A stretch of DNA of 64,000 nt from Elusimicrobiota bacterium (GCA_027340875.1 DAIENX010000007.1:10750-74749), one strand, 5' to 3'. Positions 153 through 16,398 are shown, counted from the first letter of the stretch. Notes: generated by a model from the letters alone, not told the origin. Translations and numbers: made by a program.

Positions 153-182
153 TTGACAATACGACGGCGAAAGACATTTAAT
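153..182 (+). promoter_or_regulatory. Putative sigma70-type promoter for the ygeW-like gene
   Basis: TTGACA (153-158), an 18-nt spacer, then TTTAAT (177-182). It lies upstream of the SD-preceded ATG at 231. This is a motif match only. Confidence 0.4.
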
Positions 183-230
183 GAGATGGCCGCGCAAAGC
201 GGCCCAGAACGGATCGCCATGGAGATGAAA

Positions 231-1445
231 ATGCCCACAGGGACGCAAACCAAGAACACTACAGACCTCAGGACGGCCATAGCCGGGCTCGAAAAGCTGG
301 GCGCCGACCTTTACCACAAGGACTTCCTGCTGACCTGGCAGAAATCCGACGCCGAGATACACGCGGTCCTGAAGATCGCCGAGATACTCAAGGAGATGCA
401 CGCGCAGAACATCAGCGCGCGCATGTTCGAGACCGGCCTCGCCGTCTCCAACTTCCGCGACAACTCCACCCGCACGCGCTTCTCGTTCGCCAGCGCCTGC
501 AACCTGCTGGGCCTCGCCGTGCAGGACCTCGACGAGGGCAAGAGCCAGATCGCCCACGGCGAGACCGTGCGCGAGACCGCCAACATGATCTCGTTCCTGA
601 CCGAGGCCGTCGGCATCCGCGACGACATGTTCATCGGCAAGGGCCACACCTATATGAAGGAAGTGGCCGAGGCCCTCGACGACGGTTTCAAGCAGGGAGT
701 GCTGAACCAACGCCCGGCCGTGGTCAACCTCCAGTGCGACCTGGACCACCCGACGCAGAGCATGTCCGACCTGCTGTTCATCAAGAACCACTTCGGCGGC
801 TTCGAGAACCTCAAAGGCAAGAAGATCGCCATGACCTGGGCCTATTCCCCCAGCTACGGCAAGCCGCTCTCCGTGCCGCAGGGCGTCATAACCCTGATGA
901 GCCGCTTCGGCATGGAAGTGGAGCTCGCCTACCCCGAGGGCTACGACCTGCTGCCAGACACGATCGAGGTGGCCAAGAAGCACGCCAAGAAGTCCGGCGG
1001 CTCGTTCAAGGTCTCCAACAGCATGGAGAGCGCCTTCAAGAACGCCGACATCGTCTACCCGAAGAGCTGGGCTCCGTTCAAGGTGATGGAGCGCCGCACC
1101 GCGCTGCTCGAAGGTGGCGACCAGGCCGGCCTGAAGGCCCTCGAGAAGGAGTGCCTCGAGAACAACGCCAAGTTCAAGAGCTGGGAGTGCGACGAGGCCA
1201 GGATGAAGCTGACGAAGGGCGGCAAGGCTACCTACATGCACTGTCTGCCCGCCGACATCACCGACGTCAGCTGCAAGGCCGGCGAGGTGAGCGCGAAGGT
1301 CTTCGAAGGCGCCCGCATAGGCACCTACAAGGAAGCCGGCTACAAACCCTTCGTCATCGCCGCCATGATAGCGGCCTGCACGAAGAAGAACCCGGCCAAA
1401 CTGCTGGCCGAGCTCGTGAAGGCCGACCAGAAGCGCGTGCTGTAA
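231..1445 (+). CDS. ygeW: Knotted carbamoyltransferase, YgeW family (ornithine/aspartate carbamoyltransferase superfamily)
   Basis: Carbamoyl-phosphate motif NSTRTRFSF and the HCLPA motif (MHCLPAD) are present. Long stretches match E. coli YgeW as I recall it (KDFLLTW, DLDEGKSQIAHGETVRETANMISF, KKIAMTWAYSPSYGKPLSVPQG). The track ORF starts at a TTG at 153. GGAG lies 6 nt upstream of ATG 231. ATGs at 186, 219 and 225 are alternative starts. Confidence 0.9.
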   Translation: MPTGTQTKNTTDLRTAIAGLEKLGADLYHKDFLLTWQKSDAEIHAVLKIAEILKEMHAQNISARMFETGLAVSNFRDNSTRTRFSFASACNLLGLAVQDLDEGKSQIAHGETVRETANMISFLTEAVGIRDDMFIGKGHTYMKEVAEALDDGFKQGVLNQRPAVVNLQCDLDHPTQSMSDLLFIKNHFGGFENLKGKKIAMTWAYSPSYGKPLSVPQGVITLMSRFGMEVELAYPEGYDLLPDTIEVAKKHAKKSGGSFKVSNSMESAFKNADIVYPKSWAPFKVMERRTALLEGGDQAGLKALEKECLENNAKFKSWECDEARMKLTKGGKATYMHCLPADITDVSCKAGEVSAKVFEGARIGTYKEAGYKPFVIAAMIAACTKKNPAKLLAELVKADQKRVL

Positions 1446-1460
1446 TACAGGCCGCCGCCT

Positions 1461-1498
1461 AAAGAAGAAGGACGGGCACAGGCCCGTCCTTCTTCTTT
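1461..1498. terminator. Bidirectional intrinsic terminator hairpin between convergent ygeW and a HemN-like gene
   Basis: Perfect 16-17 bp stem: AAGAAGAAGGACGGGC (1462-1477), loop ACAG, GCCCGTCCTTCTTCTT (1482-1497). A- and T-rich arms are on both sides. It overlaps the TAA of the minus-strand gene. Confidence 0.75.
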
Positions 1499-2960
1499 AT
1501 CCGGCTTTCGGAAGCAGCCGGCCGGCTATATGTTCAGGGAAGGCCGGCAGTATCTCCCTAAGGAAACGTCCGAGCCCCACCAGGACCAGGCCGCAGAAAA
1601 GGCAGTCCTCGGGAGTGTTCCTGAGCAGACGTATATACCCGCCGCCCGCCTCTACATACCCGAGAGCCGCCAGTTCCCGCAAAGGGTCGGAAAATTCGGC
1701 CAGCGGGTCCAGGCCGAAGCTCTGCCGGAACTGCGCTATCATCACCGGAGCGCCGCTCCTGAAAGAGACGAACAGGTGCTTGAGCATCTCGTCGCGCAGA
1801 TCGATGGCTCCGCCCGAGAACATCTTGCTTCCGGAGTCGAACCGGCGCGGGACGCGCAGGCTCTGCGCATAGCCGAAGTCGCCGTAAAGCACCGACCTGG
1901 CCCCGCTGCCTATGCCCAGCGTGGAGAAAGAGGCCTGGGAGAAGCCGCTCGAATACGTGTAATATTCGAAATACTTGGCCGCCTTGTCCTTCCGGCAGAA
2001 CAGCCACTCCCGGGTCTGGACGCGGCGCAGCAGCACGTAGCCGCCGGCTTCGGCCAGCTCCAGCATCCTCTTTTCCGTCTTCCCGCGGAATTTCTCCAGG
2101 TGGCGGTAGATAGCTGCGGTATCCCCGCCGTAGAATTTCTTCACGTAGATCGCGGTAGGGCTGAGGCCGTATACGGTCACGGTCTCGGGGCCGCGCCCGA
2201 GCGTTCTTGAAAAGGACCGGAGGAAGCCGGCCGCGCTTTCCCCGTGCAGGCCCATTATCAGGTCGACGTTCATCCCGAAGGCGAAACCGGCGGAGCCGAT
2301 CCGGTCCATGAACTCGATGGCGGCGCCGGTCTTCTGCGGCCGGTTGATCGCCGCGCTCACCTTTTCGTCCAGGGTCTGCACGCCCATCGTGATCTTGTTC
2401 AGCCCGTGGGCCCGCGCGATGTCGATCTTTTCGCGGCTCATCGTGGACGGGGCGCACTCCATCACCTTCTGCCCGTCCTCGGCGAACGAGAAGGAGGAGA
2501 ATATGCCGTCCAGCAGCGCCGACAGCCCGGAGGCGTCCGGATAGCTGGGGGTGCCGCCGATGAAGAGGTGCCTCACCTTCAGCCCGCGGAAGGCCCCGCC
2601 GAAATAGCGCAGCTCCTCCGCTGTCGCTTTCAGGTAGTCCTTCACCTCCTCCGGCGACGCTCCGGTCTTGTTGTAGAACTCGCAGAAATCGCAGCGCGTG
2701 CTGCAGAACGGCACGCTCACGTAAAGATTTACGAAATGACCGGCGTAAGCGGCCGCGCGCCGGCGCAGGAAGAGCTTCCAGCGTTCCCTGGCTTCCCGCG
2801 CGGAGAGCGGGACCTCTTTCCTCTCGCTGGACATCTTGTAATAGAGGTCGGCCAGGTCGAAGCTGTTGGCGCACAGCACGGCGGCCGTGCGGCGCAGCAG
2901 GGCCAGGCCGGCCAGACGCCTTTTGTCCCCGGAGACGCCGCGCGGCTTTCCTGCGCCCAT
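1497..2960 (-). CDS. HemN/HemW-like (class C) radical SAM protein, paralogue 1
   Basis: CX3CX2C motif (VPFCSTRCDFCEFY), a GGTPS motif and GVQTLDEKV..INRPQ. The N-terminal extension carries FDLADLYYKM, shared with the gene at 5866-7365. The ATG at 2960 overlaps the TGA of the upstream gene by 1 nt (TGATG). Confidence 0.85.
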   Translation of the reverse strand: MGAGKPRGVSGDKRRLAGLALLRRTAAVLCANSFDLADLYYKMSSERKEVPLSAREARERWKLFLRRRAAAYAGHFVNLYVSVPFCSTRCDFCEFYNKTGASPEEVKDYLKATAEELRYFGGAFRGLKVRHLFIGGTPSYPDASGLSALLDGIFSSFSFAEDGQKVMECAPSTMSREKIDIARAHGLNKITMGVQTLDEKVSAAINRPQKTGAAIEFMDRIGSAGFAFGMNVDLIMGLHGESAAGFLRSFSRTLGRGPETVTVYGLSPTAIYVKKFYGGDTAAIYRHLEKFRGKTEKRMLELAEAGGYVLLRRVQTREWLFCRKDKAAKYFEYYTYSSGFSQASFSTLGIGSGARSVLYGDFGYAQSLRVPRRFDSGSKMFSGGAIDLRDEMLKHLFVSFRSGAPVMIAQFRQSFGLDPLAEFSDPLRELAALGYVEAGGGYIRLLRNTPEDCLFCGLVLVGLGRFLREILPAFPEHIAGRLLPKAG

Positions 2961-4372
2961 CAGCGCGCCCCCCCTCCGAGACCGGAGATATCCGGAGCGC
3001 TCCGGCCGGAGGCGCTCCTGATCAGGAACATGATGATCAGGAAACGCGCCTTCTTGGTCCAGTAGTTCAGGTGCAGGTCCCCGTCCTTTATAGTTATGGC
3101 GCCGGCTTTGGACAGCGCGGCGAGCGGCTTCCTGAACACCTCGAGGTAGTCCTCGGCGAAGGCCCTGCGCATATAGTCGCCGGGCACCATGTTGTTGTGC
3201 TTGTCCAGGGAGAACACCATGTGCCAGAGCATCTCGTACTTCAGGCCGTGCCTGGAGAAGACCATCTTCTTCCCGTCCGGAGAGAAGCCGCCGCGCAGCG
3301 AATGCTCCGCGTGGTACAGCCCGTAGCCGAAGATGTTGGACTTAGCGCTGGGCCCCAGTCCCAGCACCGAATAGGCGTGCACGTTGTCTATCGTGTAGCC
3401 TCCGGTGGGCTCCTTCTCGAACTCCTTTATGTAGCGGGGAGTGAGCATCGTGTAGACGCGGTTCTCGTAGTGGGAAGGGTCGTAATCCGGGAAGATGAAG
3501 CCGTGCCTGTCCGCCAGCCTCTTCAGCCCCGGAAGCACGGCCCTGGCGAACCTGTTTATATCGTCCACGCACCGCGCATTGTCGTCCCCGTAGAAGTCGC
3601 GCAGGTAGTCCGGCTGCGGCACCAGCCTGTGCACGCTGATGCTGCCAGGCCCCAGCTTCATCACGCGGTCGGCCGTGTCCAGGAACGCCGCTGGCGTGTC
3701 CTTGGTCAGGCCGAGCAGCAGGTCGATGTTCAGCATCGGGATGCCGGAGCGCTTGAGCCGGCCCTGCAGCGCGACAATGTCCCGCCACGTCTGGCAGTCC
3801 CTGTTCACCCGGCTCAGCGTCCTCCTGTTGAGCGTCTGCACCCCGAAGCTGACGCGGTTCAGGCCGTGTTTCTTTATCACGGCCAGGTGCCGCGGCGTCA
3901 TGTTGAGGGGATGGCATTCCAGCCCCCGCTCTCCGGTAGGTCCGAACTTGAACAGCGAGAAGACGCCGGACAGCACGCGGTCCAGCTGCTCCGGGGAAAG
4001 CGTGCTGGGGGTCCCGCCTCCCACGTATAGGTGGGTCACCTTCACCCCCTTCAGCGCCGGCGCCATGAAGGCCATCTCCGCTAGGAGGTCGCGCAGGAAG
4101 CGTTCCACGCTTTCCGGTCCGCCCGGTTCTTCGGAGAAGTACATGCAGTACTTGCAGCGGTGCGCGCAGAAAGGCACATGCACGTAGATACTGAGCAGCT
4201 CCTGCTTGCGGCCGGTCTTTATGTCCGCGGCCAGACCGGACCACAGGGCGCGGACCTGCCTCGGGCTAAGCAGGGATTTCGGCGCGCGGTAATGCAGCAT
4301 CGCCGTGTCCAGGCTCTCGTAGAAGTCCGGGGCTATCCTTTCCGGACCCGTTTTTCCGCTGCGTTCGGTCAT
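2960..4372 (-). CDS. HemN/HemW-like (class C) radical SAM protein, paralogue 2
   Basis: VHVPFCAHRCKYCMYF (CX3CX2C), LYVGGGTPSTL, and GVQTLNRRTLSRVNR. Normal amino-acid composition, unlike the antisense ORFs. Confidence 0.85.
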   Translation of the reverse strand: MTERSGKTGPERIAPDFYESLDTAMLHYRAPKSLLSPRQVRALWSGLAADIKTGRKQELLSIYVHVPFCAHRCKYCMYFSEEPGGPESVERFLRDLLAEMAFMAPALKGVKVTHLYVGGGTPSTLSPEQLDRVLSGVFSLFKFGPTGERGLECHPLNMTPRHLAVIKKHGLNRVSFGVQTLNRRTLSRVNRDCQTWRDIVALQGRLKRSGIPMLNIDLLLGLTKDTPAAFLDTADRVMKLGPGSISVHRLVPQPDYLRDFYGDDNARCVDDINRFARAVLPGLKRLADRHGFIFPDYDPSHYENRVYTMLTPRYIKEFEKEPTGGYTIDNVHAYSVLGLGPSAKSNIFGYGLYHAEHSLRGGFSPDGKKMVFSRHGLKYEMLWHMVFSLDKHNNMVPGDYMRRAFAEDYLEVFRKPLAALSKAGAITIKDGDLHLNYWTKKARFLIIMFLIRSASGRSAPDISGLGGGAR

Positions 4373-4437
4373 AATCCTGGAGCGGCCCCTCGGCCGCCTT
4401 TCTATGATACAAAAACGGGACGCGTTTTCGGCCGGCA

Positions 4438-4470
4438 GGAAAAGGAAAGCCCCGCCGGAGCGGGGCTTTC
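4438..4470 (-). terminator. Intrinsic terminator downstream of ygeY
   Basis: 11-bp stem: GAAAGCCCCGC (4445-4455), 4-nt loop, GCGGGGCTTTC (4460-4470). On the minus strand it is followed by CTTTTCC. Confidence 0.7.
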
Positions 4471-4491
4471 GGTCTTAACGCCGCCGGGCGC

Positions 4492-5682
4492 TTACAGGTA
4501 CTGCGGCAGCGCGGCGTAGAACGCGGCGGCCTTCACCAGGTCCGCCGCGGGCATGAACTCATTGACGGTGTGCGCGTACACCTCGTTGCCGGGGCCGAAG
4601 CCGATCGTAGGTATCTTCAGGCGGCCGGCCGAGGCCACGCCGTTCGTGGAGAACACCCACTTGTCGACCACGGGGTTCTTGCCGAGGGCGACCTTGCCCG
4701 CCAGCTCGCCGGCCTTCACCAGCTTGTGCTCGCGCGGCAGCACCCAGGTGGGGAAGTACTTCTCCTGGTCCACCTTGGCGCCGGTCCAGGCGACGGCGTT
4801 GTACCACAGCACCTCGACCCTGGCCTTGGCCTTCTTCACGGCGGGCAGCTTGTTGATCTCGGCGACCGAGCTCTTCAGCGTCTCGCCCACGGTAAGGCGG
4901 CGGTCCAGGTAGATCGTGCACTCGTCGGGCACGGCGTTGAGGGACGGGGTCTTGCACTCTATCGAGGTCACGGCCACGGTGCCCTTGCCGATGAACTTGT
5001 CGTTCTTGAGGCGCTTGTTGAGGGCGGTGATCTCGTTGATGATGCCGGTCATCTTCACCACGGCGTTGTCGCCGCGCTCCGGGGCGCTGGCGTGGCAGCT
5101 GCGGCCCTTCGTGACGACCTTCATCTCCATGCGGCCGCGGTGGCCGCGGTAGACCTTCAGGTCGGTGGGCTCGGTGATCACTACGAAGTCCGGCCTGATC
5201 TTCTCTTTGTTGACGATGTGGAGGATCGGCAGGCCGTCGCAGTCCTCCTCCATCACGGAGCCGACCACGATCAGCGTGTAGTCGCCCTCGAGCTTCAGGT
5301 CCTTTATGATCTTACCCGCGTAGACCATCGAGGCCATCGACAGCTTCTGGTCGGTGGCGCCGCGGCCGTAGATCGTGTCGTTCTTGTAGATGCCCGCGAA
5401 CGGGTCTATCTTCCAGGCCTTCGGGTCGCCTATACCGACGGTGTCGATGTGGGCGTCCATCATGATCTTCTTCCTGCCGTGGCCGATGAAGCCGATCACG
5501 TTGCCGATCTTGTCGACCTTCACCTTGTCGAAGCCGACCTTGAGCATCTCCTTCTTTATCAGGGCGACGAGCTTGCCCTCCTGGCACGAGAAACTGGGGG
5601 TCCGGATGATGTTGCGCGCGAAGGCCACGATGTCCTTCTTGTACTTGTCCGCGGCCTTGCGTATCAGTTCTGCCTTGTTCAT
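4492..5682 (-). CDS. ygeY: YgeY-family M20 metallopeptidase (selenium-metabolism-linked hydrolase family)
   Basis: M20/ArgE/DapE-type motifs (MDAHIDTV, YGRGATDQK, SVMEEDCDG, GFGPG). It is a neighbour of ygeW as in enterobacteria. A strong SD (AAGGAGA) lies upstream of the ATG at 5682. Confidence 0.9.
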   Translation of the reverse strand: MNKAELIRKAADKYKKDIVAFARNIIRTPSFSCQEGKLVALIKKEMLKVGFDKVKVDKIGNVIGFIGHGRKKIMMDAHIDTVGIGDPKAWKIDPFAGIYKNDTIYGRGATDQKLSMASMVYAGKIIKDLKLEGDYTLIVVGSVMEEDCDGLPILHIVNKEKIRPDFVVITEPTDLKVYRGHRGRMEMKVVTKGRSCHASAPERGDNAVVKMTGIINEITALNKRLKNDKFIGKGTVAVTSIECKTPSLNAVPDECTIYLDRRLTVGETLKSSVAEINKLPAVKKAKARVEVLWYNAVAWTGAKVDQEKYFPTWVLPREHKLVKAGELAGKVALGKNPVVDKWVFSTNGVASAGRLKIPTIGFGPGNEVYAHTVNEFMPAADLVKAAAFYAALPQYL

Positions 5683-5865
5683 TTTATCTCCTTGGGGCGG
5701 CCGGCGCCTGGCGGCGGCGCGGCGGCGTTACGCCCATATTCTATTCAATAGCCGCGGACCTTGTAAACTTGCCTTGCGCTTGCAGGCCCCGGGGAAAATA
5801 GATACAGTCTAGTTGCCCGCGGTCCGGGCCGGGAACTCCGTTCCCCCGCCGGGCCGCCTCCCGAT

Positions 5866-7365
5866 ATGACCCGAACTAGAACCACCGGAACGGCCAGAGC
5901 GGCGCGCCTGCTGCTGATGGGCAGAACGGCGCGCCTGCTCTCCGAGAACGGGTTCGACCTCTGCGACCTGTACTACCGCATGGCCAGCAAGAAGGGCGCG
6001 GAGCGCTTTTCCTCCGAGAGAGCGGCGGCCCTCTGGGAGGAGTTCCTGCGCACCCGCCACCGCGCCGCCGGCGGGCTTACCAACGTCTACGTGAACGTCC
6101 CTTTCTGCAAGACCCGCTGCAGTTTCTGCGGTCTTTACACCCGGCCCGGCGCGGGCCGGCGGGAGATGGAGAGCTACACCTCGGCCCTGATAAGCGAGAT
6201 AGAGCGCTTCGGCCGCGCGTTCCGCGGCGTGAAGGTGAACCATCTTTACGTCGGCGGGACTCCCAGCAGGCTGGACGACGCGGCCTTCGAACGCCTGCTC
6301 GGCGCCATCTTCTCCGGCTTCAGCTTCACTCCGGAAGGCAACCGCATACTCGAATGCGCGCCCAGCAGCATGACCGTGGAGAAACTGCGCGCCGCCGCGG
6401 ACCGCGGCTTCAACAAGATAAACATAGGCGTGCAGACCCTCGACGAGAAGGTGCTGAAGGCCATAGACCGCCCGCAGGACCGCGCCGCCGTGCTGCGCCT
6501 GGTCGGGAGCGTGAACTCCCTCGGCCTGAAGTTCGGCTGCAACGTCGACCTGATAATGGGCCTCTACGGCGAGACGGCCGGGGGCTTCCTGGACTCCTTC
6601 CGCGCGATGGTGAAAAGCTCCCCGCAGACCATCTCGGTCTACGACCTCTACCTGATACCCAGCTACGTGGACAGGTATTACGGCGGCGACCACGGAGCGG
6701 CCGAGGCCGCGCTGGCGCGCGTCCGCGCCGAGGCGGAAGGGCCGATGAGGAAGATGGCGGCCGAGGCCGGCTACGTCCTGACCTGCCGCAACAACTCCAG
6801 GGAATGGGTGTTCAGCCGCCGGGAGAGCCTGAAGAACTACTCGCTTTACACCATCTATACCGGGGAATTCTCCCCCGCGCCGTTCTCCACGCTGGGCCTG
6901 GGGGCCGCGGCCAGGTCGCTGATGTACGGCTACTACAGCTATATGCAGGACGCCGGGACGATGCGGGACTTCTCCCCGGCCGCCCCGATCTTCTCGGGCA
7001 CGCCGGTCAGCATGGACGGCGAGATGATAAAGTTCCTGTTCGTCTGTTTCAGGACCGGGGTTCCGGTCTCGCTGGACTATTTCAGGAAGCGCTTCAAGAC
7101 TGACCTGCTGAAGAGGTTCAAGGCCCCGCTGGCGGAGCTGGCCGGGCTCGGCTACCTTAAGATGACCGGCAGAAAGGTGGAGCTGACCTGCTCCACCCCC
7201 GCCAGCCTCGTCTTCTGCGGCCTGTGCCTGATCGGCATGGAGAGGTTCGTCCGCGAGGCCCTGCCCTTCTTCCCTGAGAACATCCGCAGTTCTTTCGCCG
7301 GCGCCGCGGCGGGGCGCCCGGAGCGTAGCCACCCGCCGGTCAGGCACCGCAACAGCAGGCTCTGA
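5866..7365 (+). CDS. HemN/HemW-like (class C) radical SAM protein, paralogue 3
   Basis: VNVPFCKTRCSFCGLY, LYVGGTPSRL, GVQTLDEKVLKAIDRPQ. The N-terminal FDLCDLYYRM matches the paralogue at 1497-2960. Confidence 0.85.
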   Translation: MTRTRTTGTARAARLLLMGRTARLLSENGFDLCDLYYRMASKKGAERFSSERAAALWEEFLRTRHRAAGGLTNVYVNVPFCKTRCSFCGLYTRPGAGRREMESYTSALISEIERFGRAFRGVKVNHLYVGGTPSRLDDAAFERLLGAIFSGFSFTPEGNRILECAPSSMTVEKLRAAADRGFNKINIGVQTLDEKVLKAIDRPQDRAAVLRLVGSVNSLGLKFGCNVDLIMGLYGETAGGFLDSFRAMVKSSPQTISVYDLYLIPSYVDRYYGGDHGAAEAALARVRAEAEGPMRKMAAEAGYVLTCRNNSREWVFSRRESLKNYSLYTIYTGEFSPAPFSTLGLGAAARSLMYGYYSYMQDAGTMRDFSPAAPIFSGTPVSMDGEMIKFLFVCFRTGVPVSLDYFRKRFKTDLLKRFKAPLAELAGLGYLKMTGRKVELTCSTPASLVFCGLCLIGMERFVREALPFFPENIRSSFAGAAAGRPERSHPPVRHRNSRL

Positions 7366-7372: not shown

Positions 7373-8779
7373 CTATTCGAAGCAGAACATCTTCATTATC
7401 TTTTCCGAGAGCGGCGCGCAGGCCTCCGGGCCGCGCGAGGAAGCCGCGCGGTAGCGCCAGTCCTCCCCTTTGCCGGCCCTGACGGCGCGGACGAAGTCCA
7501 GCATTTCCGGGATCAGGCAGGTCTCCGGGTTCATCAGCGGGTTCCAGCACCTCTTCGGCGACGCGGCCGTCAGCAGCTTGTAATATTCGCCGCAGAACGC
7601 GGCCCCGGACTTCGGGCGGGCCAGCTCCGCCCAGCCGGAGCAGAAGCCGTCGTACTTATTCCTCCCGTCCCTGAGCGCGGCGTAGGCCGAGAGGTACGGC
7701 AGGGCCGCCTCCTCGCAGGTACGCTTGAGGTCCGGATGTATGGAGCTCAGCGGAGCGCAGCCCTCCAGCGAGCCTTTCGAGAGGGAGACGCAGACGCCGT
7801 ACTCCGCCAGCGCGTCCCACAGGTGCTGCTCCGGCATATGCCTGGCGTCGCCGGAATAGTTCGCTATGACGGTGGATACGTCCACCTTCCGGCCGGCGCA
7901 CCTGTCCTCGCCTTTCGGCTGCCCGCCGCCGTCGCCGCTGTTGCGGTACTCGCGCAGCGCGGTGATGGCCTTGCCGCCGCGCATGTTCTTCAGCGCGGCT
8001 ACGGCGGCCTCGCGCACGCGCGGCGAATCGTCCTTCAGCGCCACTATCGCGGCGTCCACGGCCGCCGGCTTGTCGATCATACCGAAGGCTTCCACCGCGT
8101 AGGTCCTGGCCAGCGGGTCCCTGTCCTTCATCATCTCCAGGGCGGCCCCGAAGGCCTTGTCCCTGTCTATCTGCACCAGCGCCCGCAGCGCCTTGGTGCG
8201 CACGTAGATGCCGGGGTCGCCCAGCAAAGCCGATACCGGCTTATAAGTGGACGGCTCCGCTATCCTGCCCAAGGCCTGGACGGCCTTCTCCCTTATCTGC
8301 TCCTCCGGGTTTCTGAGGCTCTTCACGAGGAAGTCGACGGCCCGCTTGTCCCCTATAACGCCCAGCACCTTTATCTCCCACAGCATCGCGGCCGGGCCGC
8401 TCCGCTCCGCCGCGCGCAGTATGGCGGGCACGGCGTCCCCGCCCATGTCCTCGAGCGCCCTTTCGGCGGCGCCCCTTAATTCGGACTCGTCGGAACCGAG
8501 GAAGCCGATAAGGGCGGTCACGTTCCTCTCGCCGCGCGCCTTTACCAGGGTATTCCTGGCGGCCTGGCGCTTCTTGTCGTCCGGAGACTCGAGCAGGCGC
8601 AGCAGGGCCTTCTCGCTCTCAGCGTCCAGCGAGGCGGCGCGCACCTCGCGCATCGCGGCCTCCCTGACGGACCTGGCCTGCGCCGCCGGGGCGGCGGGCG
8701 CTTCTCCGGCCCGCGCCGGGACCCCGGCCGCGGCCAGCGCTATAGGGACCATCAGCATGCGCAATACGGTTCTCTTCAT
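7373..8779 (-). CDS. Exported HEAT-repeat (PBS-lyase-like HEAT) protein with a C-terminal Cys-rich domain
   Basis: Signal peptide MKRTVLRMLMVPIALAAAGVPARA. Multiple HEAT-like repeats (e.g. DDSPRVREAAVAALKNM). The C-terminal ~190 aa carry about 10 Cys and are homologous to the C-terminus of 27316-28365. SD AGGAGGAG precedes the ATG at 8779. This is the last gene of the long minus-strand train. Confidence 0.8.
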   Translation of the reverse strand: MKRTVLRMLMVPIALAAAGVPARAGEAPAAPAAQARSVREAAMREVRAASLDAESEKALLRLLESPDDKKRQAARNTLVKARGERNVTALIGFLGSDESELRGAAERALEDMGGDAVPAILRAAERSGPAAMLWEIKVLGVIGDKRAVDFLVKSLRNPEEQIREKAVQALGRIAEPSTYKPVSALLGDPGIYVRTKALRALVQIDRDKAFGAALEMMKDRDPLARTYAVEAFGMIDKPAAVDAAIVALKDDSPRVREAAVAALKNMRGGKAITALREYRNSGDGGGQPKGEDRCAGRKVDVSTVIANYSGDARHMPEQHLWDALAEYGVCVSLSKGSLEGCAPLSSIHPDLKRTCEEAALPYLSAYAALRDGRNKYDGFCSGWAELARPKSGAAFCGEYYKLLTAASPKRCWNPLMNPETCLIPEMLDFVRAVRAGKGEDWRYRAASSRGPEACAPLSEKIMKMFCFE

Positions 8780-8803: not shown

Positions 8804-9676
8804 TCAGGACCGTGGCAGTTCCACAGTTCCGAATCTTCTTATGTAGTCCGCGTACACGCCGTCGCACTCGCCGCGCATCGCGCAGCCGCGGCAGGCGGGT
8901 ATACGCCTCCTCTCGGGAAGCTTCTTCCGGTCCGCTTTCCGGAAACGCCCCTTACCGGCCACGTACTGCCTGGCCTGGCGCTCGAACATCTCCACCCTGT
9001 CGCTGACCTCCCGGAAGAGGCACGGCACCGGCGCGTTTATCAGCGCGGCTTCCGGCTCCCCGGCGCGCAGGCATTCGATTATGACCGGCGCGGCGTCCTT
9101 CACCCTGGGGGTGTGCGGCATCTCCCCGGCCCGCTCTCCGACGTATATGATGTTCCACTTCGTCATCCCCAGGCGTCCCAGCAGGGTCCTGATCCGCGGC
9201 AGGCGCGAGACGTTCTTCCTGACCACCGTGGTATTGGCCGAGATGTTGCGGAAGCCGGCGGCGCGCAGATTGGCCACGCCCTTCAGTATGCGGGCGAAGC
9301 CGCCCTTCGTGCCGGTGAGCCCGTCATGGACGGAAGCCCTGTCGCCGTGCACCGAGAAGCGCACCTCGGTCACCCCCGCCTCCAGCAGGGCCGCGACGAA
9401 CTTCCGGTCGGCGAACATCCAGCCGTTGGTGGTCAGCATGCGCTGCCTGAACCCCAGCCTTTTCGCCGCCCCGAAGATCGCGAAAATATCCTTCCTCAGC
9501 GAGGACTCCCCCCCCAGCACGTCCACCGCCTCCGCGCCGGCCCGCCTGGCCTCCACCAGCTCCGCCAGTATGGCGCGGTGGCTCTTGTCCGGCGCCTTGC
9601 CGCGGTACTCCCTGTCCCAGCAGAAGCCGCAGGAGTTGTTGCAGGTGTAGCCGGTGATCAGCTTGAGCGACCTCAT
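8804..9676 (-). CDS. Radical SAM protein, CX2CX5CX3Y family paralogue
   Basis: The track ORF is 5'-extended. The internal ATG at 9676 forms an ATGA overlap with the upstream stop. N-terminus is MRSLKLITGYTCNNSCGFC (CX3CX2C). Also TTNG and SVHG..VHDGLTG. The C-terminal motif is CRGCAMRGECDGVYADYIRRFG. Confidence 0.85.
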   Translation of the reverse strand: MRSLKLITGYTCNNSCGFCWDREYRGKAPDKSHRAILAELVEARRAGAEAVDVLGGESSLRKDIFAIFGAAKRLGFRQRMLTTNGWMFADRKFVAALLEAGVTEVRFSVHGDRASVHDGLTGTKGGFARILKGVANLRAAGFRNISANTTVVRKNVSRLPRIRTLLGRLGMTKWNIIYVGERAGEMPHTPRVKDAAPVIIECLRAGEPEAALINAPVPCLFREVSDRVEMFERQARQYVAGKGRFRKADRKKLPERRRIPACRGCAMRGECDGVYADYIRRFGTVELPRS

Positions 9677-10602
9677 CGCGCCCCCCCGCGCTTCCGGCCG
9701 GCCGGGGCCTTCTTGAAGCAGAAATAGGCGTCCAGCGTCCTGCCTGACTTCCCGGCCCCGTCCCCGGCCGCGAACAGCACCGGCGCCATCGTCATGCCGG
9801 CGCGCCTCGCGTAGGCGACGAGCGAGAGTATCTTCTGCAGGGCCGCCGGGCGCCCTCCGGCGGCGTAAAGCCCGCAGATCTCCCGCATCGCCGGGGTAAG
9901 ATCGCTTATTCCGCCGGTCTCGTACACCTTGTAGGCCTTCCTCCGGCCGGAGCCGGCGCCGCGCATCTCGTAATAGAAGCACTTCTTTTCCAGCCCCAGC
10001 CCCGCCATCGTCCGCTTCTGCCAGGGCGGCACGCGCAGCCCGGCCGGCGCTTCCCGCCTGAAATAGAGCTTGAAGTCGCGGCCGCGGCCCGGCGTCAGGT
10101 CCAGACAGACGGCCGACAGCGCGTCCAGGTCCGCCTTGGACGGAAGCCTCTTCAGGCCGCAGGCCCCGGAAAGCAGGCCGGCCTTCAACCGCCCGTCATA
10201 GACGGGATAAAGTTCCTCGTGGTAGACCTTCAGCCGCGGGGCGTTCTGGCCGGTGCCCCAGTCCAGGCCCAGCGTGGTCTGATGGGCCGCGCCCAGCGCC
10301 GCGCCGGCCTTCAGGAAGCGTCCGAGCGCGGCCAGGTCGTAGCTGTCTCCGAAAGAAGCGGCATAGCGCATTATCACCCGGCCCAGCGCCCCGCGCTCGC
10401 CGAAATCGCTGACGCTGAAGCGGAAGGCCCCCGGATCGGAGGAGGAGACGCAGACGTCGAGCTTCTGGTTGAGCGGCAGCCATTCTCCCTTCACCCTGCC
10501 GGCGAACAGCCCGGCGATGGCGGCCAGGCCGGCCGGCGGGACCTGAGGGGCCCCCTCGCCGAGGAGCCTGAACAGGCCGGGCAGGGACCCCGCGCTCCGC
10601 AT
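9673..10602 (-). CDS. Hypothetical protein, possible ABBA (alpha-beta-beta-alpha) prenyltransferase-like fold
   Basis: Size is 309 aa. A strand-pair pattern with a basic residue then Y recurs: LGLDWGTG..PRLKVYHE, VCLDLTPGRGRDFKLYFR, YYEMRGAGSGRRKAYKVYE, LFAAGDGAGKSGRTLDAYFCF. This resembles NphB/CloQ/PatF-type proteins. The start overlaps the upstream stop by 1 nt. Function is inferred from sequence pattern only. Confidence 0.6.
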   Translation of the reverse strand: MRSAGSLPGLFRLLGEGAPQVPPAGLAAIAGLFAGRVKGEWLPLNQKLDVCVSSSDPGAFRFSVSDFGERGALGRVIMRYAASFGDSYDLAALGRFLKAGAALGAAHQTTLGLDWGTGQNAPRLKVYHEELYPVYDGRLKAGLLSGACGLKRLPSKADLDALSAVCLDLTPGRGRDFKLYFRREAPAGLRVPPWQKRTMAGLGLEKKCFYYEMRGAGSGRRKAYKVYETGGISDLTPAMREICGLYAAGGRPAALQKILSLVAYARRAGMTMAPVLFAAGDGAGKSGRTLDAYFCFKKAPAGRKRGGAR

Positions 10603-11624
10603 CAGCGCCCCTCTATGTCGCTGGTAAGCTCGTTGTATTTCTTGAGCAGCCGCTTTTTGGCGAGGGCCTTGCGCATCTCTCCCGCGAACTCGGTGAACAG
10701 CAGGCCGGCCTTCACGTTGTTCCGGAGGTTGCCCACGATGTTGTTCTCGCGGTAGATGATGGACATGGCCCGCGTGTTGGACAGCCGGCCCGGGTGCAGC
10801 TTGTCTATGCTCAGCTCCGGGTCGGAGATATGGCCCAGGATGTAGCGGTTGCGCACGGCGTCGTCCTTGACCAGGTAGGCCAGGCAGGCGGAATAGATGT
10901 TGCCGTCGATGTTCACCGACAGCTCGGTGTTCATCGGCATCGGCGAAAGCCAGTTCTTAACGTTCAGCAGCGCCACGCCCTTGTCCTTCAGCGCGGCCAC
11001 CGCCGCCGGCACCAGCTCCTTCAGCTTCTTCCTCAGCAGCTTCAGCTTGGCGTCGGTGAACTTGGGGCCGCAGGAGACCATTATCCAGACCTTCTTGAAG
11101 CCCAGCTCCACCAGCGAATTGAAGCTCTCCAGCAGCCGCGGCGCGGTATCGGGCGTGATCACGGTGTAGCAGTAGGCGTCCAGGCCGTTGCGGAAGATCA
11201 TCGGCAGGTTCTTCACCACCAGCGGGTAGGTCTCGTCCTTGCAGCCCATCCGCGGCCTGTTCTTGTTGTGCGAGCGGCGGTCGCCGTCCAGGCTGACTAT
11301 CAGCAGCACGTCGTGCTTCTTGAAATAGGCTATCTTCGCCTCGTCGAGCAGCGTCGCGTTCGTCGTCATGATGAACTTGACCGTCTTGCCCAGCGAGGCC
11401 GCCTTGCGCTCGCCGTACTCTATCGTCCTGCGGATCAGGTCGAACGGCAGCAGCAGCGGTTCGCCGCCGAAGAACTCCATCTTCAGCTCCTTGTCCTGCG
11501 AGCCGCAGAGCAGGTCCACAGCCTTGAAGAGGTAGTCCTCGGGTATATACTTGTTCTCGAAATGGACCTTGCAGTAAGTGCAGCGCAGGTTGCAGGCCCA
11601 GGTGGTCACGACTAGAAGGTACAT
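10602..11624 (-). CDS. Radical SAM protein (anSME/peptide-maturase-like N-terminus, no obvious SPASM cysteines)
   Basis: MYLLVVTTWACNLRCTYCKV (CX3CX2C), FFGGEPLL, MTTNATLL, SLDGDRRSHNKNR. It lacks the C-terminal CX2CX5C motif of its neighbours. Confidence 0.85.
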   Translation of the reverse strand: MYLLVVTTWACNLRCTYCKVHFENKYIPEDYLFKAVDLLCGSQDKELKMEFFGGEPLLLPFDLIRRTIEYGERKAASLGKTVKFIMTTNATLLDEAKIAYFKKHDVLLIVSLDGDRRSHNKNRPRMGCKDETYPLVVKNLPMIFRNGLDAYCYTVITPDTAPRLLESFNSLVELGFKKVWIMVSCGPKFTDAKLKLLRKKLKELVPAAVAALKDKGVALLNVKNWLSPMPMNTELSVNIDGNIYSACLAYLVKDDAVRNRYILGHISDPELSIDKLHPGRLSNTRAMSIIYRENNIVGNLRNNVKAGLLFTEFAGEMRKALAKKRLLKKYNELTSDIEGR

Positions 11625-11628
11625 GTTC

Positions 11629-13392
11629 TCATCCTATTTCCCCGGACCCGAACCTGCCCAGGTACTCCGAGAAGACCCCGGGGCAGCGCCGGCAGGGGCC
11701 GCAGGAGGCGGGCCTCGTCCGGCCGAACTCGGCGGAGGAATTTATCTCATTATAATAAAATAAGCCGTCCCGGAAGACCAGCAGCCTGGCGGCCGGCGCC
11801 TGCCTGAAACTGGAAGCTCCGGGGAACACGCCGCGCAGCCTGTCCACCACGCAGTCCGGGAAGAGCGTGAACTGGGCGCGTCCGGAAGCCCGCGAGCGGC
11901 GGTAGGCCTCTACCAGGCTGGCATATGAGGGCAGCGCGCTCAGGTACCGTTTCTCCCCGCCCGGGCCCTGGTTGTCCGGGTAGTAATGCCAGACGGAAAG
12001 GCCCCAGTCGCCGGAGTAGGAGCCGACCAGCCCGCCCAGGGCCGGCAGCTCCCGCGCGTTCTTCTTCAGCGCCACCGCGTGGAAGCTGACGTCCAGGCGG
12101 TCTCGCTTGGCCAGCCTCTCCATCAGCGATATCAGCTTCCGCCAGGAGCCGGGCCGGCCGGTGACCGAGTCGTGCGTCTTCGCGGAGGCGCCGTATATCG
12201 GCAGCTCCAGCCCGGTCACGCCCAGCTTCTCCAGACCGTCGAGCGCCGCGTCGTCCAGCGCGAGGCCGGTGGTCCAGAGCCTGATCTTCCGGTAGCCGGC
12301 GCCGCGGCAGCGCCGCAGGAGCTCACCCAGCGCCGGGAACCTGTCGGCCCTGTCCCTGCCCCAGATATTCAGGGTCCTGTCCTTGTTCACCACGGAGAGG
12401 AACCTGCCCAGAACCGGAGACCCCGGGTCGAAGTCCAGCTTCTCCCGCGCCAGCCGGTGGTACTGCCTGCCGCGTATGACGCGCGAGTCGAAGGCGCAGG
12501 TGAAATCGCTGGCCCCGTACTGCAGGTCTATCGCCGCCAGGAAGTCCCGGCCGGCGGAGGGCTTTTCGCCGGCGAGGACCGCGTCGGGCATCACGAGGCG
12601 TCCGCCGCCTACGGCGTCGGAGTAGAGGTACCTGTTGCGCCTCAGCTCGTCTATGCGGCTGGCGGGCGGCAGGAAGCCCAGGTCGCCGCCCAGGTCCTCC
12701 ACGAGGACCCTGGTCGATAGCCCGGCCATGCGGGCGCGCACGGCTCTAACGGCCGAGACGAAGCCTTTCCGGTCCAGCAGGCCGCGCGGCGCGGCGCCGC
12801 CGGGATAGCCGGCCAGCGGCCTGGCCAGCGTGATGAAGGAGAGGCCGAAGCCGTCGAGCAGGGAGAGGACGGCGCCGAGCGACGCGGCGTTGACCCGCGT
12901 CACCGGCACGGCCGCGCCCACTTCCCTGATGCCGGCCGTTCTGGCCGCGCGCAGGCCGGCGAGGTTCTCCGCGAAGGCTTCGCGCCCGACGCCGCAGACG
13001 CGCGCGTAGGTCTTCCCGTCGGCGGCCGGCACCGAGACTATGGCGTAGCCCAGCCCCGCCGAGGCGAGGCCGGCGGCCAGGCCGGGGCGCAGCAAGCCGC
13101 GGCCGTTGGTGGACAAGCCTATGGTGGAGTAGCCCATGGCGCGGGCCGCCGCCACGAACCCCGGCAGGCCGGGGTGCGCGGCCGGCTCCCCGCCGGTGAA
13201 CTCCACGTGATCGAGGCCCATGGACCTGCCGTATTTGAGCCCGGCCAGCACCTTGCCGGCAGGGGCCAGGGCGCCGGACAGCCCGCAGGCGCAGTAGCCG
13301 CAGCGGTTGTCGCAGGCGTCGGAAACGGAAAGGGAAAGTCTGCTGAGGCTTTCCCCGGAAACGCCTCCCGTGGGAACGGCTTCTTCAGCCAC
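11629..13392 (-). CDS. Two-domain radical SAM protein: an intact N-terminal rSAM core plus a degenerate rSAM-like repeat ending in a Cys motif
   Basis: GTG start at 13392, an 8-nt overlap with the upstream gene. The N-terminal half has SDACDNRCGYC, FTGGEPAAHPGL and STNG. The C-terminal half repeats the barrel motifs (LWTTGLALDD, LPIYGASAKTHDSVTGRPGSW) but has no CX3CX2C. It ends in SCGPCRRCPGVFSEYLGRFG. Confidence 0.8.
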   Translation of the reverse strand: MAEEAVPTGGVSGESLSRLSLSVSDACDNRCGYCACGLSGALAPAGKVLAGLKYGRSMGLDHVEFTGGEPAAHPGLPGFVAAARAMGYSTIGLSTNGRGLLRPGLAAGLASAGLGYAIVSVPAADGKTYARVCGVGREAFAENLAGLRAARTAGIREVGAAVPVTRVNAASLGAVLSLLDGFGLSFITLARPLAGYPGGAAPRGLLDRKGFVSAVRAVRARMAGLSTRVLVEDLGGDLGFLPPASRIDELRRNRYLYSDAVGGGRLVMPDAVLAGEKPSAGRDFLAAIDLQYGASDFTCAFDSRVIRGRQYHRLAREKLDFDPGSPVLGRFLSVVNKDRTLNIWGRDRADRFPALGELLRRCRGAGYRKIRLWTTGLALDDAALDGLEKLGVTGLELPIYGASAKTHDSVTGRPGSWRKLISLMERLAKRDRLDVSFHAVALKKNARELPALGGLVGSYSGDWGLSVWHYYPDNQGPGGEKRYLSALPSYASLVEAYRRSRASGRAQFTLFPDCVVDRLRGVFPGASSFRQAPAARLLVFRDGLFYYNEINSSAEFGRTRPASCGPCRRCPGVFSEYLGRFGSGEIG

Positions 13393-14239
13393 GGCGCCTC
13401 CGTGCCACCAGGAATTTAACCATCTCCACCGCGTAAGACTTTACGAAGCCGGGGCAGGAGACGGAATGCGGGCAGGCGGAGCAGACCCCGGCGGGCTTCA
13501 CCCGCAGGCGCGGCTGGAAATCGGCCCCGGAGACCTCCCCGGCGGGGCAGGGCAGGCCCAGCTTCTCCGCCACGCAGAGCGGCACCGCCCCGCCGGCAGG
13601 CAGCATGCACCTGAGCCCCAGCTTCCGGCGGAAGCCGGCTATGGCGGAAAGCGAGCGCAGCGCGGCGGCCGCGTCGGGTATCAGCCAGCGCCTGGCCCGG
13701 ACGCGCGCGCAGTCCGGCTCCAGCAGAGAAAGCACGATGTCCTTAACTCCGTATTTCTTCCTCAGTTCGCGCACCAGGGCAGGCGCGGAGGACTGGTTGC
13801 CGGAATAGACCAGGAAATTGACGGCGGTCCTTATCCCGGCGCGGCGCAGGTTCTTCAGCGCGGCTTCCTTTTTGGCGAAGCCGCCTTTTACCCCGGCGAG
13901 AGCGTCGTATCTCTCCGGGGCCGATTCGAAGAAGCTGAGCACGACCTCGTCCAGGCCCGCCCCGGCCAGCTCCTCCAGGTAATCGGCGGAGGCCAGCCTG
14001 AGGCCGTTCGTCAGCAGCGCCACGTACTTGCCGCCCTTCTTCAGCCGGCGCACGAGGCCGGGCAGGCCGGGATGCAGCGTGGGCTCGCCGCCGGTCACGT
14101 TCACCCGCGCGGGCCCGGGCTCGGCGGCCAGGGCGGCGGCCTGCCTGGCGGCCCCGTCCTTCCGCTTCACGCCGCCGGCGTCGCAGAACAGGCAGTCCTG
14201 GTTGCAGCCGCAGGAAAGTACCAGGCGGGAGGTCTTCAT
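13385..14239 (-). CDS. Radical SAM protein, CX2CX5C family paralogue
   Basis: The internal ATG at 14239 makes an ATGA overlap with the upstream stop. MKTSRLVLSCGCNQDCLFC, VTGGEPTLHPGL, LTNG. C-terminal CSACPHSVSCPGFV. Confidence 0.8.
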   Translation of the reverse strand: MKTSRLVLSCGCNQDCLFCDAGGVKRKDGAARQAAALAAEPGPARVNVTGGEPTLHPGLPGLVRRLKKGGKYVALLTNGLRLASADYLEELAGAGLDEVVLSFFESAPERYDALAGVKGGFAKKEAALKNLRRAGIRTAVNFLVYSGNQSSAPALVRELRKKYGVKDIVLSLLEPDCARVRARRWLIPDAAAALRSLSAIAGFRRKLGLRCMLPAGGAVPLCVAEKLGLPCPAGEVSGADFQPRLRVKPAGVCSACPHSVSCPGFVKSYAVEMVKFLVARRRRG

Positions 14240-15186
14240 TTCGCTCTCTTCCGCCGCTTCGGCCCCGCCCCCGCGGCGGCGGGGCGGCACGGAACGAACT
14301 CGCCCCAGCCGAAAAGCTCCGGGTACTCGCGCCAGGGACCCTCGCACCTGTCGAAGAAGGCGCAGGACGGACACTTCGGCCCCTTGGCCTTGCCCTCGTT
14401 CAGCCTGTATTTACCGAAATCCTCTATCACGGTCCCCGCGTCGAAGATCTTGGTGCGCGGGATTATCGTCTCGGCCACGTAGTCCTCGTAGCCGCCCATG
14501 AAGCAGTACGGTATGGCCTCGGTCATAACGCGCAGGCCGGCGGCAAGGCCGATGTCCAGGCCGCGCTTCACGAAAGGCTCCATCACGGTCTTCTTCGGGA
14601 TCAGCCACCTGGCGTTCGCGGCGGCGCTGCCGAGTATGTGCACGAAGGCGAACTGGAACTGGTCCACGCCCAGCTTGGCCAGCAGCGTGGCTATGGCCGG
14701 CAGGTCCTGCGTGTTGGGTTTGGTTATCACGGTGTTGGTGATGACCCGGAACCCCGCCTTCTTCAGGTTCATTATCCCGGTCACGGTCTCGCGGAACGAG
14801 CCCCCGGCTCCGGTGAGGTAGTCGTGTATCTCCGCCCTGGACCCGTGCAGGGCCGGCGAGGCCTCGGTGGCCCCTGCCGCCGCCGCCTCGCGGCAGAACT
14901 CGGGGTAGCGGAACATGCGGCCGTTGCTCTGGATCTGGATGTTGCGGTAGCCGGTCTTCTTCGCCTCGCGCACTATCTGCAGGAATTCCTTGTGCAGCGT
15001 GGGCTCGCCGCCGGTCAGGACCAGCTCCCGGCCGCCGTCCTCGTAGCCGCGCCTCAGCTCCCTGCGCAGCTGCGCCATGTCCTTGGGCTGGTGCTTCTCC
15101 CGCTTCTTGCCCTGCACGCAGAACACGCACATGTTGTTGCAGCCGAAGGCGACTTTAAGGTCTATCCGCTTCAGGGGTCCGTTCAT
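14236..15186 (-). CDS. Radical SAM protein, CX2CX5CX3W family paralogue
   Basis: VAFGCNNMCVFC, LTGGEPTLHKEF, QSNG, ALHGSRAEIHDYLTGAGGSF. C-terminal CPSCAFFDRCEGPWREYPELFG. The ATG at 15186 makes an ATGA overlap with the upstream stop. An ATG at 15198 is an alternative start. Confidence 0.85.
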   Translation of the reverse strand: MNGPLKRIDLKVAFGCNNMCVFCVQGKKREKHQPKDMAQLRRELRRGYEDGGRELVLTGGEPTLHKEFLQIVREAKKTGYRNIQIQSNGRMFRYPEFCREAAAAGATEASPALHGSRAEIHDYLTGAGGSFRETVTGIMNLKKAGFRVITNTVITKPNTQDLPAIATLLAKLGVDQFQFAFVHILGSAAANARWLIPKKTVMEPFVKRGLDIGLAAGLRVMTEAIPYCFMGGYEDYVAETIIPRTKIFDAGTVIEDFGKYRLNEGKAKGPKCPSCAFFDRCEGPWREYPELFGWGEFVPCRPAAAGAGPKRRKRAK

Positions 15187-16394: not shown

Positions 16395-16398
16395 AGTT

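Follow-up and report, generated by a model that had tools for sequence, protein, structure and literature searches.

Three kinds of described system bear on a stretch of 64,000 nucleotides from an Elusimicrobiota bacterium (GCA_027340875.1 DAIENX010000007.1:10750-74749; below, the window), in which three genes for HemN-like radical S-adenosylmethionine (SAM) enzymes, A, B and C (proteins P0001, P0002 and P0003; together the trio), lie beside an operon of His-Xaa-Ser (Hxs) and nitrogenase-like (NFL) genes. The canonical Hxs system is the anti-phage system HxsD-HxsB-HxsC-HxsA, in which HxsB and HxsC mature HxsA (Li et al., Nat Commun 2026, PMC13128918). According to the accessible portions of that paper, more than 99.8% of these systems consist of four proteins and 99.7% occur in Pseudomonadota, and a term search of the paper returns no mention of HemN or nitrogenase.

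The second kind is formed by the clusters around Group VI nitrogenase paralogues in groundwater Elusimicrobia, which hold up to 13 radical SAM genes, some of them with HemN_C or B12 domains, and from this context the reduction of tetrapyrroles was predicted for Group VI (Meheust et al. 2020, 10.1101/765248, in its accessible sections). The idea of a tetrapyrrole drawn from HemN_C-bearing radical SAM genes near Group VI paralogues is, by the same sections, already published. Among nitrogenase-like groups Group VI alone has no characterised member, and the context argument is repeated in the accessible part of a 2026 Chem Rev review (PMC13474568); every enzyme characterised in Groups IV-B and V acts on a tetrapyrrole, as far as the accessible text of both sources goes (10.1101/765248, PMC13474568). 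The third kind is the HemN-like family, most members of which, in the accessible text of PMC10114718, are not coproporphyrinogen oxidases and share a mechanism with two SAM molecules and a methylene radical. One of them, TbtI, methylates the thiazole of the TbtA precursor peptide, and its target is therefore a heteroaromatic ring carbon of a precursor peptide (PMC10114718, same text). No paper linking HemN-like enzymes to Hxs systems was found in the literature, subscription papers and supplements aside.

The operon beside the trio resembles the canonical system in that it has a true HxsB, an HxsA with His-x-Ser repeats and many HxsC-like genes, and it differs from that system, as the accessible text describes it, in that the locus is expanded over more than 20 kb and includes HemN-like genes and a NifH-NifD fusion; the trio itself is not among HxsA-D. 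The operon is thus a non-canonical Hxs system with a Group VI nitrogenase-like fusion, of which the trio is at most an accessory. The locus is of the same kind as the Group VI clusters, with NifH/D paralogues and many radical SAM genes, some with HemN_C; the accessible portions of the Group VI papers take HemN_C and B12 domains as a sign of tetrapyrroles, whereas the HemN-like genes here form a separate clade tied to Hxs-type peptide-maturase genes. From the separateness of the trio from the haem enzymes, the fusion of its relatives to HxsC-like domains and their recurrent adjacency to Hxs genes, it is suggested here, with modest confidence, that A, B and C are a catalytically intact, uncurated HemN-like branch and would serve as accessory tailoring enzymes of the Hxs/Group VI cluster rather than in haem biosynthesis or as haem chaperones.

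A HemN-like clade apart from the curated haem enzymes

The trio matches only HemN-family models in NCBIfam, and none of the three proteins reaches any curated cut-off. The scores of A, B and C are 105.3, 126.0 and 112.0 bits for HemN/CgdH (TIGR00538, cut-off 324.95), 80.8, 106.7 and 81.6 bits for HemW (TIGR00539, cut-off 205.4), 106.2, 146.0 and 110.4 bits for HemZ (TIGR03994, cut-off 321.4), 95.2, 109.9 and 120.1 bits for ChuW/HutW (TIGR04107, cut-off 400), and 132.8, 131.3 and 130.1 bits for the STM4012 family (NF006067, cut-off 380). No Hxs model matches the trio, and PADLOC has no match for the three proteins. The genome carries its own HemN on contig C14 (404.3 bits against the cut-off of 324.95) and its own HemW on contig C91 (254.7 bits against 205.4).

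Trees were calculated with E. coli HemN, HemW and ChuW, proteins named HemW and HemZ at their source, and the genome's own HemN and HemW as references. In the FastTree tree (82 rows), a branch with support 100 splits the trio and its database relatives, 56 of the 82 rows, from all references, and in the quick IQ-TREE tree (43 rows) a branch with support 99 leaves 25 of the 43 rows on the side of the trio and all references opposite. On the reference side E. coli HemN stands with the protein from C14, the HemW rows stand with the protein from C91, and HemZ and ChuW are found there as well. On the other side, A groups with C, the orthologue of C in the congener G023, P0004 and P0106 (support 99-100), and B lies elsewhere in the same clade. 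The trio thus belongs to a separate, uncurated clade of the HemN-like family, here called clade I, and it is not housekeeping HemN or HemW, as the genome's own copies, the cut-offs and both trees agree. This bears out the expectation of the original prediction that the genes would be distinct from HemW; of the phylogenetic placement that it called for, the part concerning HemN, HemW, HemZ and ChuW is answered, and NosN, TbtI, Jaw5 and HutW are not among the rows. A second HemN-like lineage of the genus, clade II (G018, G012, G014, G011, G020 and G003), falls on the reference side.

Relatives of the trio are few at high identity. When 5.8 billion clusters are searched with a word index, A has one relative only, at 47% identity, and B has its G023 orthologue (P0015) at 81%, followed by proteins at 32% and 30%. 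An exhaustive HMMER search with a five-row profile returns 2,916 proteins at E 1e-30 or better, and among the best 150 of these (at least 234 bits) nearly all match most of the profile and few are partial. When 64 clade members are scanned against NCBIfam, no model is matched at E 1e-55 or better. One clade member, P0017, is labelled Polyangiaceae; a cluster look-up of 10 clade members gives a single name, an Elusimicrobiota metagenome-assembled genome (MAG), for P0108, and look-alike clusters in an atlas name Myxococcota, Pseudomonadota and Elusimicrobiota, as leads only. A search for related loci with the five-row alignment gives 80 matches in 79 loci, of which two are G023 contigs and the rest HemW-like or distant HemN-like, and the 14 longest-match loci annotated from those 79 show no Hxs or Nif neighbours. 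In the 1.2-1.9-Mb genomes of one family (f2), many HemW-type matches contain one or two in-frame TAA/TGA codons, most likely because N-terminal positions of the profile extend upstream of the true start.

The enzymes appear intact in their radical SAM core. Each protein has one Pfam Radical_SAM domain (PF04055; 6e-17 in A, 2e-18 in B, 8e-18 in C) and one CxxxCxxC motif (CSTRCDFC, CAHRCKYC and CKTRCSFC, respectively); the neighbouring motifs are canonical in B (YVHVPFC and GGGTPS), A has YVSVPFC and GGTPS, and both A and C have one Gly fewer ahead of GGTPS. In a nine-row alignment the E. coli HemN residues C62, C66, C69, G112, G113, T114, P115, E145, Q172, R184 and D209 are invariant in the trio; they are SAM-binding and catalytic positions of that enzyme. 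The fourth cysteine of the HemN motif CxxxCxxCxC is replaced by E, M or G in the trio, Y56 is retained in all three, and H58 is retained only in B (S in A, N in C); the fourth cysteine and the Y56/H58 pair are important in E. coli HemN.

A and C are 47% identical over 460 amino acids, and B is 29% identical to each. The possibility that A is a recent duplicate of C was considered and rejected, since A is 44-48% identical to C, to the G023 orthologue of C and to P0004 alike; A being about equidistant from all three, the split between A and C predates the two species. A distinctive N-terminal extension had been noticed in two of the three genes. It is present in A (residues 19-43) and C (residues 15-39) and recurs in the G023 orthologue of C, in P0004 and in P0106, and in a MAFFT alignment its FDLxDLYY core falls opposite DWDLALIQKY in the N-terminal part of E. 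coli HemN.

To compare the trio with each haem-enzyme family, consider first E. coli HemN/CgdH (1OLT), which is the best solved homologue and shares the CxxxCxxC motif, the GGGTP region and E145/Q172/R184/D209 with the trio. The profile aligns to residues 49-445 of PDB 1OLT (profile positions 70-465). The trio differs from HemN in lacking the fourth cysteine, in the change of H58 in A and C, in scoring below the cut-off and in forming a separate clade. As to the C-terminal region, Pfam HemN_C is not reported for the trio at E 1e-5, and it does appear in the precomputed Pfam lists of the relative P0004. HemW has the same superfamily core and, like the trio, is without the fourth cysteine, but it lacks the long N-terminal segments of the trio. 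ChuW/HutW, class C enzymes of anaerobic haem degradation, are HemN-like with an N-terminal region partly matched from position 14-18 of the HutW model, but no haem-uptake genes lie near the trio, and the ChuW on the reference side of the tree is that of E. coli O157. The STM4012 family provides the best-scoring curated model for A and C, near full length, and the second best for B, but the trio is far below its cut-off, and the function of the family is not known.

Solved relatives found by sequence are only HemN 1OLT (152.8 bits, full length) and NocN 9P2U (102.4 bits, positions 69-271, the core). Functionally, the favoured analogy is to the class C peptide methyltransferases (TbtI; NosN/NocN 9P2U), which are HemN-like and act in ribosomal-peptide pathways; they differ in that only the radical SAM core matches NocN and that no thiopeptide genes are present at the locus.

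Coupling to HxsC-like enzymes in fusions and gene neighbourhoods

The most direct connection between the two groups of enzymes is found in fused genes. In a survey of 151 proteins (the best 150 of the profile search and P0017) against the proteins of the window, 18 have one or two additional radical SAM domains, which match the operon's HxsC-like proteins best, and HxsC/HxsC4 domains are confirmed by NCBIfam in P0147, P0108 and P0199. The sister group of the subclade of A and C consists of two such HemN-like/HxsC-like fusions (support 95, IQ-TREE). Tandem HemN-like pairs account for 7 of the 151 proteins and parallel the coupled pair B-A; in a locus of G404 (L067, G404:C62, 7670-13368), a same-strand run of a PapB-like radical SAM gene, two adjacent HemN-like genes, a second PapB-like gene and an HxsC-like gene is the unfused counterpart of these tandem fusions. 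Clade II contains a HemN-like/HxsC-like fusion with two CxxxCxxC motifs in G020. The long forms in G003 and G014 were also considered as HxsC fusions and rejected, since their C-terminal parts of about 290 amino acids lack CxxxCxxC and match weakly (E 6e-4); the HemN-like genes there overlap the next, HxsC-like gene by 4 nt, and G020 is the only clear fusion among the three. As read from the protein sequences, the fusions are Rosetta-stone evidence that HemN-like and HxsC-like enzymes would act together.

The neighbourhoods tell a similar story. In G023 (86% nucleotide identity) the layout is the same, with orthologues of B (81%) and C (82%) in the same places, and in the window HxsC-like genes start 1.4 kb from C. 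In G018 (contig C43) a HemN-like gene lies, on the opposite strand, inside a different cluster of HxsB, HxsC, PapB-like and NifH-D-K-like genes, and in G316 (C68) and G313 (C63) a same-strand run of NifHD-like, radical SAM, HemN-like and two further radical SAM genes is found.

When 401 Elusimicrobiota genomes are sampled and three candidates per genome are scored, HxsB lies above its curated cut-off in 89 of the 401, nearly all in three families (43 of 47, 8 of 10 and 34 of 47 genomes), and all three scored HxsB places match in many of the 401. For the 400 genomes other than the window's own, 45 full-length HemN-like places are listed, clades I and II being counted jointly, and in at least 18 of them a listed HxsB lies on the same contig no more than 15 kb away. 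From the remaining 27, 22 were annotated in 20 stretches reaching up to 10 kb to each side: six stretches have NifH/D-like genes, six have HxsC-like radical SAM genes only and eight have neither, so that 14 of the 22 places are linked to NifH/D-like or HxsC-like genes. In total, 32 of the 40 examined places are near HxsB, HxsC-like or NifH/D-like genes, to be compared with a chance level of about 3%, a rough estimate based on three 30-kb neighbourhoods in a 2.8-Mb genome. The HemN-like family of both clades is thus found within about 15 kb of HxsB, HxsC-like or NifH/D-like genes in three Elusimicrobiota families.

The partner in these neighbourhoods is Hxs rather than NifH. HemN-like genes occur in Hxs clusters without a NifH-like gene in the examined stretches of G003, G014, G020, G011 and G012, loci that were chosen for their HemN-like matches and therefore give no frequency. 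Among 40 relatives, 18 NifH-like places are found in 12 genomes. The original prediction had tied the HemN-like genes to the neighbouring radical SAM operon, and that tie is upheld by the synteny in G023, the recurrent adjacency in other Elusimicrobiota and the HxsC-like fusions; the co-occurrence with the NifH fusion that it also expected fails, being seen in only 2 of the 12 NifH-bearing congeners. Of the shared pathway that it proposed, the link to Hxs-type radical SAM genes therefore stands, and the link to the NifH fusion itself does not.

Layout of the locus and the ygeW-ygeY interval

The window has a GC content of about 64% and comes from a 2.8-Mb MAG that is 92% complete; the organism is diderm, given BamA, OmpH, LpxD and LpxC at 39-45 kb. 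The features of the locus are collected in Table 1. Three full-length HemN-family genes, a TGATG overlap coupling two of them, strong hairpins flanking the units and the identities of ygeW and ygeY had been proposed from the sequence, and each is recovered: in cTGATGg (2958-2962) the stop codon of P0002 shares bases with the start codon of P0001, and both ygeW and ygeY score far above their curated cut-offs.

Table 1. Features of the trio's locus and of the adjoining operon, in window coordinates
Feature	Position	Strand	Basis or remark
ygeW (knotted carbamoyltransferase)	153..1445	+	NF005538 683.5 bits, cut-off 453; conserved core gene flanking variable slot
Bidirectional terminator hairpin, gap between ygeW and HemN-like A	1460..1499	both	overlaps stop codon of A
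HemN-like A (P0001, 487 aa)	1497..2960	-	without counterpart in closest relative G023
HemN-like B (P0002, 470 aa)	2960..4372	-	translationally coupled to A
Terminator-like hairpin, 3' of ygeY, upstream of HemN-like B	4445..4470	-	folding energy
ygeY (M20 hydrolase)	4492..5682	-	NF009555 564.4 bits, cut-off 321; conserved core gene
Divergent intergenic region between ygeY and HemN-like C	5683..5865	.	single sigma-70-like site, minus strand, 5767-5738
HemN-like C (P0003, 499 aa)	5866..7365	+	paralogue of A; convergent with last gene of big operon
HEAT/PBS-lyase-like repeat protein, last operon gene	7373..8779	-	Pfam HEAT_2 4e-29
HxsC/HxsC4-like and PapB-like radical SAM array	8804..26716	-	includes NifH-NifD fusion 20389-22605
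HxsA-like precursor, 98 aa, C-terminal His-x-Ser repeat run	28359..28655	-	translation
HxsB radical SAM/SPASM maturase	28675..30144	-	TIGR03978 489.4 bits, cut-off 370

The hairpin between ygeW and A has a perfect 18-bp stem with folding energies of -40.9 and -41.5 kcal/mol on the two strands (z -8.8 and -7.8), and the one between ygeY and B, of 11 bp, folds at -23.8 kcal/mol (z -2.8) and carries a T-rich tail. Upstream of B (window 4373-4445; about 170-205 in locus L029), TTTTTGTATCAT is conserved between the window and G023, and it is a possible -10 region, which would belong to a promoter of the B(-A) unit just past the ygeY terminator. An 11-mer with exactly two copies in the window, one upstream of B and the other upstream of the open reading frame at 30591-31187, was rejected as a shared promoter motif: it is not in the G023 counterparts, and with one mismatch it occurs at chance level (4 found, 2.99 expected). 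A complex prediction for B with A gave a score of 0.00 (mark 0.32), which is evidence in neither direction.

All junctions are spanned by independent contigs of public runs, namely 1265-3207 (in three of four runs), 3179-4519/4543, 5620-6540 and 6616-7558. In each of two runs one contig connects 644 with 5700 and so leaves out 5,055 bases, its shorter side being only 21 letters long; a relative or an artefact of a repeat may explain it better than a variant without the ygeW-ygeY block. The stretch was matched in no public run recorded as RNA.

The insertion of HemN-like genes between ygeW and ygeY had been called odd in itself; on comparison with the congeners it gives no clue to a pathway. 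ygeY is present in 40 of the 43 genomes of the genus, at 80-100% identity in 35 of 41 places, and copies of ygeW that are 77-92% identical lie beside it in congeners. The interval between the two is below 0.2 kb in G012, G014 and G017; seven further congeners have 1.3-5.3 kb there, and G006 and G024 have 8.5-9.1 kb, which makes the interval variable in 12 congeners, and its cargo is unrelated: NDK, LpoB and LPP20 in G008; AsnB, TPR/GDSL, a NifH-NifD fusion, a NifK-like gene and ApbE in G024. Examples of the slot are L040 7132-18632, L052 3545-11250 and L046 2535-5098. HemN-like genes occur in this slot only in the window's own genome (G000) and in G023. In 12 of 13 congener loci ygeW/ygeY have Hxs-type radical SAM genes to one side or to both, and the two genes resemble conserved anchors within an Hxs super-locus that is otherwise hypervariable. 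They would then be core genes that bound an insertion slot and not partners in the pathway.

The operon itself runs, from its far end, through an HxsD-like open reading frame, HxsB, HxsA, about 12 HxsC/HxsC4-like radical SAM genes, the NifH-NifD fusion and the HEAT gene, which ends seven bases from the stop of C. For the HEAT protein, models of the phycobilin-lyase type (CpcE/F, NblB) are below cut-off and PADLOC HEAT-ARM_XIII gives 1.1e-16; these matches are probably repeat-driven, and no homologue was found in the other Hxs loci examined. Alignment of the window with G023 fails in one block only, window 31181-36715 against L028 6657-10870, with a B12-binding radical SAM gene, a further radical SAM gene and an amine oxidase on the window side, and a separate NifH-like gene with a frame of 299 amino acids (G023:C58:26845-27603) on the other.

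Substrate, rival explanations and significance

If A, B and C are accessory enzymes of the Hxs/NFL cluster, each would bind two SAM molecules, by analogy with other HemN-like enzymes, and a SAM-derived methylene radical would methylate, alkylate or oxidatively decarboxylate a substrate that is common to the HxsB- and HxsC-like enzymes. B and A are probably co-translated, and the tandem fusions in other genomes suggest that the two may work jointly. The HxsA His-x-Ser repeat peptide or its product would be a more likely substrate than a free tetrapyrrole, because the constant companions of the HemN-like genes are HxsB, HxsC and HxsA and not NifH, and because HemN-like enzymes have a peptide precedent. 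Tetrapyrroles were one of the options that the original prediction gave for HemN-family enzymes, and nothing tested points specifically to a tetrapyrrole substrate; the trio is weak evidence for the tetrapyrrole role proposed for Group VI.

Several observations weigh against assigning the trio to the Hxs/NFL cluster or to a peptide. The trio lies outside the big operon, C being on the opposite strand and ygeY, with a terminator-like hairpin, standing between the operon and B and A. The closest relative, G023, has no A: in this exact gene-sized indel the stop of the B orthologue is followed 17 nt on by the same hairpin, and A is therefore dispensable there. A HemN-like gene shares a contig with only 3 of the 18 NifH-like places of the relatives (in G023:C58 and G018:C43), 8 of the 22 annotated places show no Hxs or Nif neighbour, and the neighbour counts, pooling clades I and II, bear on HemN-like genes generally and not on the clade of the trio. 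In sequence the clade resembles HemN (1OLT) more closely than NocN (9P2U), a methylase of a peptide pathway, the N-terminal segment of A and C can be aligned with that of HemN, and the trees are unrooted and drawn without NosN, TbtI, Jaw5, C10P, MenK, HutW or STM4012 references. A PBS-lyase-type HEAT protein and a B12-binding radical SAM gene nearby would fit a tetrapyrrole, and the fusions reveal coupling to HxsC-like enzymes, not the identity of the substrate.

Some of these observations are what one would expect from a tetrapyrrole pathway, in which the HemN-like enzymes act on a porphyrinoid by decarboxylation, methylation or ring opening and the Group VI NifH/D-like reductase then reduces it, giving a novel cofactor. 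The full-length match to HemN, the HemN-type segment in A and C, the HEAT and B12 neighbours and the tetrapyrrole activity of all characterised Group IV-B and V enzymes (10.1101/765248, PMC13474568, in their accessible text) are in its favour, as is the fact that the genome, having a HemN of its own, makes haem. We nevertheless consider it unlikely, since the trio falls below every curated haem-enzyme cut-off and outside the HemN, HemW, HemZ and ChuW groups, the domains found fused to HemN-like proteins are of the HxsC type and so belong with a peptide system, the operon has a true HxsB and an HxsA repeat peptide at its head, most NifH-like loci of the genus are without a HemN-like gene, and most HemN-like proteins are not coproporphyrinogen oxidases (PMC10114718, accessible text). 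The trio could also be HemW-like haem chaperones serving multihaem cytochromes, with which the absence of the fourth cysteine, as in HemW, would agree; with 80-107 bits against a cut-off of 205.4, a true HemW elsewhere in the genome, a long N-terminal segment absent from HemW and a position apart from the HemW rows in both trees, this is very improbable.

The remaining alternatives concern the position of the genes. Being cargo of the variable ygeW/ygeY slot, the trio might be an accidental neighbour of the Hxs/NFL operon and belong, for instance, to a separate small-molecule pathway. The unrelated cargo in G008 and G024, the trio's own terminators and different strand, the exact indel of A and the eight places without Hxs or Nif genes all fit such an accident, but it would leave the fusions to HxsC-like domains, the repeated same-strand embedding in Hxs/NFL operons (G316:C68, G313:C63) and the excess of 32 of 40 places over the roughly estimated 3% to be explained, and this makes it decidedly improbable. 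Slightest of all is the chance that the trio works with ygeW and ygeY in a purine/selenium-associated catabolic cluster, as the physical interleaving might suggest together with a ygeX-like pyridoxal-phosphate enzyme, an amino-acid/carbamate-kinase-like gene and ygeW upstream; ygeW and ygeY are directly adjacent in G012, G014 and G017 and have other genes between them in others, and the strong conservation of ygeY in 35 of 41 places is accompanied by HemN-like genes there in G000 and G023 only.

For the Group VI clusters, a role of the trio as accessory tailoring enzymes would have consequences beyond this locus. The tetrapyrrole proposal for Group VI rests, in the accessible text of 10.1101/765248, on gene context, namely on HemN_C-type and B12-binding radical SAM genes, of which the trio are examples, and both a clade of their own outside HemN, HemW, HemZ and ChuW and the repeated HxsC-type fusion weaken that argument. 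In some Elusimicrobiota, further, Hxs-type systems, given as four-gene units in the accessible portions of PMC13128918, are both common and much expanded, and the presence of HxsB in 89 of 401 sampled genomes of this phylum is at odds with the share of 99.7% in Pseudomonadota given there. As a bolder and rather doubtful extension, the HemN-like enzymes associated with Group VI may be peptide-directed, two-SAM enzymes that modify a His-x-Ser protein, for example by C-methylation or alkylation of imidazole, in complex with or fused to HxsC-type enzymes. If this is true, what the whole Group VI NFL/radical SAM super-locus makes in groundwater Elusimicrobiota is a peptide with heavy tailoring and not a porphyrinoid; the peptide could be a diversified anti-phage effector of the HXS type or a peptide-derived metal-binding cofactor, and with the nitrogenase-like reductase its superfamily would gain a first member that acts on a peptide.

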